Source: Escherichia phage sutha. Taken from it: DNA of 64,000 nt. Numbering within the stretch: the first letter of the stretch is position 1; each line of letters begins with the position of its first letter. The stretch lies in the sequence record PV245934.1. One strand, 5' to 3'. Both the position numbers and the translations under genes were made by a program. A model generated the notes under the pieces. It had not been told where the DNA came from. It saw only the letters and a list, made by a program, of their open reading frames with translations, and made no database searches. Shown here piece by piece: positions 45,887 through 47,692 of this stretch.

Positions 45887-45929
45887 ATTATTTTCCTCTT
45901 TAATCATCAGCAGTATTGCCGATAGTTGT

Positions 45930-45959
45930 ATAGTACCATGGAAGGACAAGGATGTAAAC
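45930..45959 (-). promoter_or_regulatory. early promoter (GTTTAC -35) within repeated cassette
   Basis: Minus GGTTTAC-18 bp-TACTAT; cassette shared with 62249-62338. Confidence 0.6.
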
Positions 45960-45990
45960 CGTTTTGTGAAAAAAATTTTGAAATAAAAAA

Positions 45991-46008
45991 GGGACCTCTA
46001 GGGTCCCC
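45991..46008. terminator. terminator GGGGACCC-ta-GGGTCCC after gene 32
   Basis: Near-perfect palindrome flanked by A-run and T-run, directly downstream of gene 32 stop. Confidence 0.7.
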
Positions 46009-46030
46009 AATTAATTAGTAATATAATCTA

Positions 46031-46939
46031 TTAAAGGTCATTCAAAAGGTCATCCAAGTCCGTGTCATCAGCACTAGATGAACTGCCGGAGCTTGAGCTC
46101 ATAAAATCATCTTCAGTTTTTGTATTGAAGTCATCAACATTGAATGCATCCAAATCATCAGCAACTTTATCGGCTTTCTTAGCAGCAGTTGCAGCGGCAC
46201 CACCCATCACAGCAGTTCCCATAACTTGACTGAACTTAGTGCTCAGTTCTTCAAACGATTTGAACTTATCTTTAGAAGTCATTTCAGAAAGGTCAACCAT
46301 TTGTTCGAACAGTTCTTTCTGGAAAGATTCATCATCAATGTTTGGAATCGCAGATTGATTCAGGAATTTAGATTCATCGTAGTTACTAAAACCAGAAACT
46401 TGTTTAACTTTCAGTACAAAGTTAGCACCTTCCCACGGACAAGTTACATCAACTGGAGTTTCACCCATTTCAACATCAACCGCAATCATTGCATTGATTT
46501 TGTCCCAAATCTTTTTACCAAAACGGTATTTGAATACTTTACCTTCGTTTTCTGGAGCTTGTGGGTCTTTAACAACCAGGATATTAGCCCAATAAGAAGT
46601 TTTACGTTTCAGTTGAGAATATTCGGTTTTGTTTGTATTGTACAGGTCATTTTTACTAATGTACTGACACACCGGACAAGAGTCATAATCGCCGTGTGTA
46701 GATGAACAAGTTTCAATATACCATTTGCCATTTTTCTTGAACCCATGGTTAACAAGAATTGCAAACGGAAGTGCGTCATCTGTTTTTGCCGGCAGGAAAC
46801 GAATTACTGCTTGACCGTTACCCGCATTGTCGAGTTTCAGTTTCCACTCGCCTTTATCTTCAGAAGAAAAACCACCTTTATTGCCATTCAGTTTAGCCAT
46901 TTGTGCAGCGAGTTCAGCAGTAGATTTACGTTTAAACAT
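46031..46939 (-). CDS. 32: single-stranded DNA-binding protein gp32
   Basis: 302 aa; [22 protein letters not shown]...; zinc site [15 protein letters not shown]; acidic C-terminus [16 protein letters not shown]; matches T4 gp32 by recall. Confidence 0.97.
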
Positions 46940-47002
46940 TTTTATTTCCTTTTTAATTTAATTAACAGTTGGTGCTATGACGATGTATGACCTCATAGCT
47001 GG
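46940..47002 (-). promoter_or_regulatory. gene 32 translational operator: A/U-rich leader plus pseudoknot-forming GCUAUGA...UCAUAGC element
   Basis: Minus-strand 5' [66 protein letters not shown] read directly; matches my recollection of the T4 gene 32 autoregulatory operator. Confidence 0.65.
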
Positions 47003-47022
47003 TCAGTGAGATAATTATAATC

Positions 47023-47030
47023 TATTTATA
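47023..47030 (-). promoter_or_regulatory. late promoter TATAAATA upstream of gene 32
   Basis: Plus tatttata is minus TATAAATA, ~85 bp upstream of gene 32 ATG. Confidence 0.55.
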
Positions 47031-47038
47031 ATAAGCAA

Positions 47039-47692
47039 TTAATACTTACAAGATTTCACAGTTTCAATGAAAACACTTTTAGCTTTCTGTGAATCAATAT
47101 TTAAAATTTTTCTATAAGCCTTTAACTTTATAGAATAATTATTCCAGACTAAATTATCAGTTTGTTCATCATGTTTATCAATTATATTTAAAAACGAATC
47201 AAGCAAGATAAACGTTTCAAACGAAATTATGTTCGATTGCAGAAGTTTAAAAATATAACTTGATTGAACTTTTGGATTATACTCAAAGATTTCTTTAAAA
47301 GCAGAAACTTCAACTTTCTTACTAAAATAATAAATGTTGCGAATATCTTCTTCAAACTTAAATTTAATTTGCTTTAAGCGTCCGATATATTCACGATAAA
47401 ACACAAGTGCATCAGCGTCCGATATCTCACCAATCCATGCGTCTTGGTTAGCAACTAAGTTGCTTATGAATATCAAGGTGAGTTCCTTCAATTTATATTT
47501 CTCTGCTAGTTTTTCAAAGAAATATTTATCTCGGCGTTTTTGATACGCATTATCCGAAACACGCATGCACCAGTTATATTTGATTACGTCATACCGACCA
47601 CCAAAATGGTTTTTGCACATCAAGTATAGTTTATATACCGATTTTCCGTTAATATAACGTTCTCCATCAGCAGGCATGCGGAGTTTAATCAT
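47039..47692 (-). CDS. 59: helicase loader gp59
   Basis: 217 aa; MIKLRMPADGERYINGKSVYKLYLMCKNHFGG...; T4 gp59 size and position. Confidence 0.93.
   Translation of the reverse strand: MIKLRMPADGERYINGKSVYKLYLMCKNHFGGRYDVIKYNWCMRVSDNAYQKRRDKYFFEKLAEKYKLKELTLIFISNLVANQDAWIGEISDADALVFYREYIGRLKQIKFKFEEDIRNIYYFSKKVEVSAFKEIFEYNPKVQSSYIFKLLQSNIISFETFILLDSFLNIIDKHDEQTDNLVWNNYSIKLKAYRKILNIDSQKAKSVFIETVKSCKY

Follow-up and report, generated by a model that had tools for sequence, protein, structure and literature searches.

Organisation of the gene 32 locus

The window, by which we mean the whole 64-kb stretch of DNA that was analysed, is that of a T4-like phage (Tequatrovirus). On its minus strand a leader of 104 nt (47040-46937) lies between two open reading frames (Table 1). 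The downstream frame matches the Pfam family gp32 (PF08804) with E = 8e-65, and its product is 95% identical to T4 gp32, with residues 1-22, KRKST included, being the same in both proteins. These matches bear out the initial annotation, which had named the gene as gene 32. By analogy with T4, the product would be both the repressor and the target of the regulation considered here.

Gene 59 is found directly upstream of the leader. Compared with T4, the interval from gene 59 to gene 32 (47039-46940) lacks segG (T4 32.1), the same arrangement as in T2. When T4 was crossed with T2, the naive recipient of segG homing was T2, which is without the gene (PMC535899, PMC2988022), a lack that the present phage has in common with it. 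On the other side, 22 nt past the stop codon of gene 32, there is a strong terminator that reads GGGGACC...GGTCCCT and then TTTTTTATTT; its 7-bp stem contains 5 G-C pairs and is followed by the T run TTTTTTATTTC.

Table 1. Features of the gene 32 locus, in window coordinates, listed in the direction of transcription
Feature	Position	Strand	Basis or remark
Gene 59	47692-47039	-	Both Pfam domains of the T4 gp59 helicase loader matched
Candidate MotA box TGCTTAT	47037-47031	-	10-mer AATTGCTTAT fits wwwTGCTTtA at 8/10 positions
TATAAATA, T4-type late promoter (candidate)	47030-47023	-	Exact coding-strand match in the 59-32 spacer
TATAAT, -10 of candidate middle promoter	47019-47014	-	Sequence; within the fPS-2 annotation
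AAUUAU, possible RNase E motif	47016-47011	-	Same hexamer in T4 (GAAUUAUGCC)
Pseudoknot stem 1, 5' arm UGACC	47005-47001	-	Helix H1 of the T2 NMR construct; pairs with 46992-46988
Loop 1, single A	47000	-	Invariant across nine distinct knots
Pseudoknot stem 2, 5' arm GCUAUGA	46999-46993	-	Pairs with 46980-46974
Pseudoknot stem 1, 3' arm GGUCA	46992-46988	-	Pairs with 47005-47001
Loop 2 UACAUCG	46987-46981	-	L2 'uacaucg' of the T2 pseudoknot (PMC5684407)
Pseudoknot stem 2, 3' arm UCAUAGC	46980-46974	-	Pairs with 46999-46993
A/U-rich tract with UUAA(A)/UAAA repeats	46973-46940	-	34 nt, 82% A+U
AACUGU hexamer	46970-46965	-	Just 3' of the knot
Shine-Dalgarno AAGGA	46951-46947	-	Within the A/U-rich tract
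Start codon AUG of gene 32	46939-46937	-	Opens the 302-aa ORF
Gene 32 (gp32, single-stranded-DNA-binding protein)	46939-46031	-	302-aa ORF
Intrinsic terminator hairpin 3' of gene 32	46008-45990	-	Terminator scan

The leader contains an H-type pseudoknot

The initial annotation drew attention to an inverted repeat, GCUAUGA...UCAUAGC, and the minus-strand leader that it quoted is present letter for letter, repeat included. It also spoke of a pseudoknot. Such a knot is indeed there, but just one of its helices, stem 2, had been named, and the other had been missed: UGACC pairs with GGUCA to form stem 1, which interlocks with stem 2 and turns the hairpin into an H-type pseudoknot. The layout is S1(5)-A-S2(7)-S1'(5)-UACAUCG-S2'(7), and the whole element takes up 32 nt, from -66 to -35 relative to the AUG. 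Knots of T-even gene 32 operators measure about 28-32 nt and begin near -67, with two stems that stack and a loop 1 of 1 nt. The NMR structure of the T2 knot (PDB 2tpk) was determined on a 36-nt RNA, which is printed in PMC5684407 as gcugaccagcuaugaggucauacaucgucauagcac; that paper gives H1 and H2 as a joint helix of 12 bp and L2 as uacaucg, and the structure itself is credited to Holland et al. 1999, as cited in PMC3014915 and PMC5684407. Positions 47006-46972 of the window are identical to nucleotides 2-36 of this RNA, and the assignment of stems and loops given in Table 1 is therefore the one determined by experiment.

Could stem 2 act by itself, as a simple hairpin operator with no functional pseudoknot? 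Both the minimum free energy (MFE) fold and the centroid fold of the leader contain just the 7-bp stem 2 (-11.4 kcal/mol; z = -1.56, which is unremarkable), and the two arms of stem 1 are about 80% unpaired in a nested-only ensemble. Nested folding is, however, unable to represent pseudoknots. The folding check proposed in the initial annotation returned two things, the stem 2 hairpin by MFE and the knot by a pairing grammar. Furthermore, stem 1 covaries among relatives, its pairs 2-17 and 3-16 changing on both sides, an RNA of identical sequence is an H-type pseudoknot in the solved structure 2tpk (PDB; cited in PMC5684407), and the knot is required for repression (PMC535899). We consider a hairpin-only operator very unlikely.

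A separate question is whether the inverted repeat might be a mere accident of an AT-rich spacer. The modest MFE z-score would agree with this, as would the scan of both strands of the 64-kb window (128 kb in total), in which three Watson-Crick knots of the same grammar were counted, the present one included. On the other hand, when the 99-nt intergenic leader was shuffled 20,000 times with its dinucleotides preserved, a knot of this grammar turned up in just 8 of the shuffled sequences, a statistic that is not to be read as a probability, the sequences being related by descent. The knot is moreover conserved across genera, in the same place and before the same gene, with compensatory changes in its stems. 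The likelihood of a chance feature is, in our judgement, negligible.

An Rfam search had been proposed as a further check and came back empty: no family of Rfam 15 was matched at gathering thresholds anywhere in the window, and a search of 46500-47500 at a permissive E-value yielded only chance-level matches around the leader (E > 1). A weak match to the DUF2815 RNA (E = 1.2) was discarded; it consists solely of the ribosome-binding stretch AAAAAGGAAAUAA...AUG. Rfam is without a family for the gene 32 operator.

Covariation of the knot among T4-like phages

Gene 32 loci for comparison were drawn from IMG/VR and from named phages. They furnish nine distinct compact knots at the same position, from Tequatrovirus (T2 and T4 types), Mosigvirus, Winklervirus, Jiaodavirus and unnamed lineages, and all nine keep the junction CC-A-G...A-GG. 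When MAFFT was applied to the full knots, the 3' arm of stem 1 was misaligned, loop 2 being variable in length, and stem 1 was for this reason counted on an alignment from which the loops had been excised. There, 95.4% of cells are paired, a percentage that is inflated by the use of knots found by the grammar, and 7 of the 12 pairs have changed on both sides. As a control, the partners were slid by 1-3 columns, which brought pairing down to 24-41%. Within stem 1, compensatory change affects 3 of the 5 pairs, including 2-17 (UA/GC) and 3-16 (AU/UA/GC/GU), in which both sides change. Stem 2 could be assessed on a plain MAFFT alignment, unguided by structure, and is 100% paired there, with compensatory change in 4 of its 7 pairs; this result and the conserved CCAG...AGG anchors mitigate the bias in pairing.

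Do pseudoknots occur beyond the compact type? Expanded knots of the same topology are present in L026/L027 (-90 to -42) and in Acinetobacter phage Stupor of the Twarogvirinae (L093; -79 to -27). Their stem 1 measures 8 bp, their loops are 5 and 9-13 nt long, the junction is one of 4 nt, and stem 2 is either GGUGUAG/CUACAUC or GGUGUAC/GUACAUC; each of them outscores all 60 shuffles. This suggests that the operator knot reaches into the Twarogvirinae. Many other genera show no knot by either the compact or the relaxed grammar. With the relaxed grammar, the leaders of Moonvirus, Dhakavirus, Gaprivervirus, Krischvirus, Chrysonvirus, Schizotequatrovirus and others gave none above shuffle level, in agreement with the reported lack of a knot in RB49 (PMC535899, PMC3014915). 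A scan of IMG/VR with the degenerate pattern CCAG-N6-AGG-N10-40-AACTGTWAA was set aside as too unspecific, with unrelated contigs among the matches listed. Nine distinct compact knots and two distinct expanded ones (three leaders) would suffice to seed a model of the Rfam type.

The public record of the Mosigvirus phage SA35RD (OL960577; L085 232-265) labels the homologous 34 nt, that is, its pseudoknot, as 'rho-independent terminator; WebGeSTer'. Read in this manner, the element would end transcription of gene 59. Stem 2 of the present leader is not followed by a U run, the next bases being ACCAACUGUUAA, and a terminator scan of 45900-47300 returns solely the site after gene 32. Polycistronic transcripts of gene 32 are known, moreover, to read through and then to be processed (PMC3014915). 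We regard a terminator as extremely unlikely here, and the label in SA35RD is probably mistaken, given that the stem lacks a U run behind it. The case is a warning for annotation: automated pipelines take the knot for a terminator, and Rfam holds no model for it.

The A/U-rich tract and a conserved AACUGU hexamer

Between the knot and the start codon the initial annotation had placed an unstructured, A/U-rich stretch, and this description holds. The tract carries three UUAA and three UAAA motifs. Averaged over 46973-46952, the probability of being unpaired in the nested ensemble is 0.70, and for 46951-46937 it is 0.76; the tract is thus predicted to be mostly unpaired, along with the ribosome-binding site and the start codon that it covers. 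The number of UUAAA repeats (3 or 4) is independent of the type of knot, as a comparison of two leaders (L004 and L005) indicates; L005 combines a knot of the T4 type with a short tract as in T2.

In the 100 nt before gene 32, the hexamer AACUGU is the most widely shared of all, being found in 25 of 31 non-redundant T4-like leaders, and the 45 copies observed in these 31 leaders compare with 0.87 expected from shuffles. Phages that bear a knot have one copy, just 3' of it. Knotless genera have 2-4 copies at distances of 10-13 nt (among loci L008-L016, L022, L086 and L094), which lie partly in the coding tail of gene 59, where amino-acid changes accommodate them. A literature search for AACUGU together with gp32 found no earlier mention. 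Might this hexamer be an undescribed, sequence-specific part of the operator, whose tandem copies replace the knot as nucleation site or bind another factor? We put this forward tentatively and consider it rather doubtful.

Candidate promoters and possible RNA processing upstream of the knot

Further upstream, the initial annotation had noted a late promoter, TATAAATA. The motif is an exact match located 17 nt 5' of the knot, and it is conserved in relatives: in 8 of the 10 non-T4 leaders with a knot that were examined, TATAAATA precedes the knot by 4-22 nt, and the homologous site carries a late-promoter annotation in phage SA35RD. The 64-kb window contains 20 copies, compared with 9.3 expected, and no shuffle reaches 20. 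The element may plausibly serve as a late promoter, in which case transcripts would start at about 47017-47015; initiation at promoters of this type takes place some 6 nt downstream of the motif, late in infection, and depends on gp55, gp33 and gp45. T4 likewise has a middle and a late promoter for gene 32 just upstream, inside segG (PMC2988022).

A candidate middle promoter of the MotA type overlaps TATAAATA. The consensus for the MotA box is wwwTGCTTtA, placed 12+/-1 bp before an excellent sigma-70 -10 element (PMC2988021). Here the MotA-like AATTGCTTAT is spaced 11 nt from a perfect TATAAT, and the identical stretch of Yersinia phage fPS-2 is annotated as 'predicted middle promoter'. Another, good candidate of this kind was noticed inside the 3' end of gene 59 (47205-47181, minus strand), where TGCTTGA is followed after 12 nt by TATAAT. 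Transcription from it is predicted to begin near 47174, the exact counterpart of T4 position 148678, which is listed as the start of PsegG; with segG absent, this promoter would feed gene 32 directly.

In T4, RNase E cleaves every gene 32 mRNA at -71, immediately before the knot (PMC3014915). The hexamer AAUUAU is located in T4 at the position that matches this cut, and in the window it is 5 nt further from the knot; judged by this motif, a processing site for RNase E at 47016-47011 is possible. Only 4-5 nt separate the end of TATAAATA from stem 1 in several genera, whose late transcripts would therefore start at the knot. A knot at the 5' end thus seems to be the shared outcome of initiation and processing, and one may speculate that it adds to the unusual stability of the gene 32 message.

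Could the knot then be mainly a 5'-terminal shield against 5'-end-dependent mRNA decay, besides or instead of being a site for gp32 nucleation? The placement of TATAAATA a few nucleotides before stem 1 in several genera would suit such a role, as would the finding that the gene 32 mRNAs, with their RNase E cut at -71, are the most stable of T4 messages (PMC3014915). Their stability has, however, been tied to translation and not to the knot (PMC3014915), and a protective role is in any case compatible with that of an operator. We think a predominantly protective function possible, if improbable.

The leader as the T2 form of the gene 32 operator

What, then, is this element? In T4, T2 and RB69 the gene 32 operator consists of two contiguous parts, a pseudoknot that serves as nucleation site and a less structured tract (PMC535899, PMC3014915). 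The second part, which exceeds 40 nt and includes UUAAA/UAAA repeats as well as the ribosome-binding site, is bound cooperatively by gp32; both parts are needed for repression (PMC535899, PMC3014915). Binding of gp32, its spreading and the repression of its own synthesis have been shown for T4 and RB69 (PMC535899, PMC3014915). The initial annotation had described an autoregulatory operator of this kind, with nucleation at a pseudoknot and coating of the leader, and that is the mechanism found in the literature.

The 104-nt leader matches four independent records of T2 (PV958097, AY310907, LC348380 and MH751506) at 100% identity and 350 phage records at 99% or more. A longer query of 241 nt (46880-47120) finds its best match, at 100%, in Shigella phage ESh25, and 500 of 500 matching records are T4-like; the window may thus belong to a Tequatrovirus that resembles T2 and not to T2 itself. 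We are highly confident that the leader is the autogenous translational operator of gene 32, in the form that it has in phage T2. The same mechanism can be assigned to it with high confidence because the leader is identical to that of T2 and the gp32 nearly identical to that of T4. On the basis of the T2-identical leader and of the first 22 residues of gp32, which are those of T4, we infer that gp32 represses its own translation in the present phage as well.

Regulation would proceed as follows. The gene 32 mRNA bears a compact H-type knot, its stems stacked into a quasi-continuous helix of 12 bp. Once present in excess over single-stranded DNA, gp32 would bind the knot first and from there spread cooperatively in the 3' direction along the tract, until it covers the ribosome-binding site and initiation is blocked. 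The leader itself could come from longer transcripts that are processed, or transcription could begin within the 59-32 spacer, at the putative TATAAATA late promoter some 17 nt before the knot and at the candidate MotA-type middle promoter that overlaps it. By either origin, the knot would come to be at or near the 5' end of the message.

This operator is already known, and there is no new biology in finding it intact. It is a textbook case of a protein that senses its own free concentration by way of RNA, and its knot was among the first pseudoknots to be characterised. For annotation, its recognition fixes the true start and the regulatory leader of gene 32, and it marks the window as T2-like and segG-less at the gene 32 locus.

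Comparison with known operators

The closest known system is the gene 32 operator of T2 (and T6). The T2 leader is without any difference from the present one; in T2, too, gene 59 is directly upstream and there is no segG.

The initial annotation had likened the leader to that of T4 (McPheeters et al. 1988; Shamoo et al. 1993; both cited in PMC535899). It is the same operator, in its T2 variant. Shared with T4 are the gene, the position, stem 2, the one-A loop 1, the flank CACCAACUGUUAAUUAAAUUAAA..., the Shine-Dalgarno sequence and the start codon. The T4 knot starts at -67, compared with -66 here, and its stem 1 is UGCC/GGUA (4 bp) in place of UGACC/GGUCA (5 bp); its loop 2 is AAGUG (5 nt) in place of UACAUCG (7 nt), and its tract is longer by one UUAAA (5 nt). 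In T4, moreover, genes 59 and 32 are separated by segG, which encodes a homing endonuclease and has a reading frame that overlaps the 5' arm of the knot; there is no such gene here.

RB69 (Mosigvirus) resembles the present phage in having a knot and an unstructured A/U tract, and its autogenous repression has been demonstrated experimentally (Borjac-Natour et al. 2004, PMC535899). The Mosigvirus leaders that we examined (SA35RD and contig L007) keep the CC-A-G...A-GG junction. They differ from the present leader in stem 2 (GCUACGA/UCGUAGC) and stem 1 (AUACC/GGUAU), in their longer tract and in a TATAAATA that abuts the knot.

Outside the phages, rpsO of E. coli, which encodes ribosomal protein S15, likewise uses an mRNA pseudoknot for autogenous translational control (PMC3014915). 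Its sequence is unrelated, however, and it operates by entrapment of the ribosome and not by the cooperative coating of an unstructured tract (PMC3014915).
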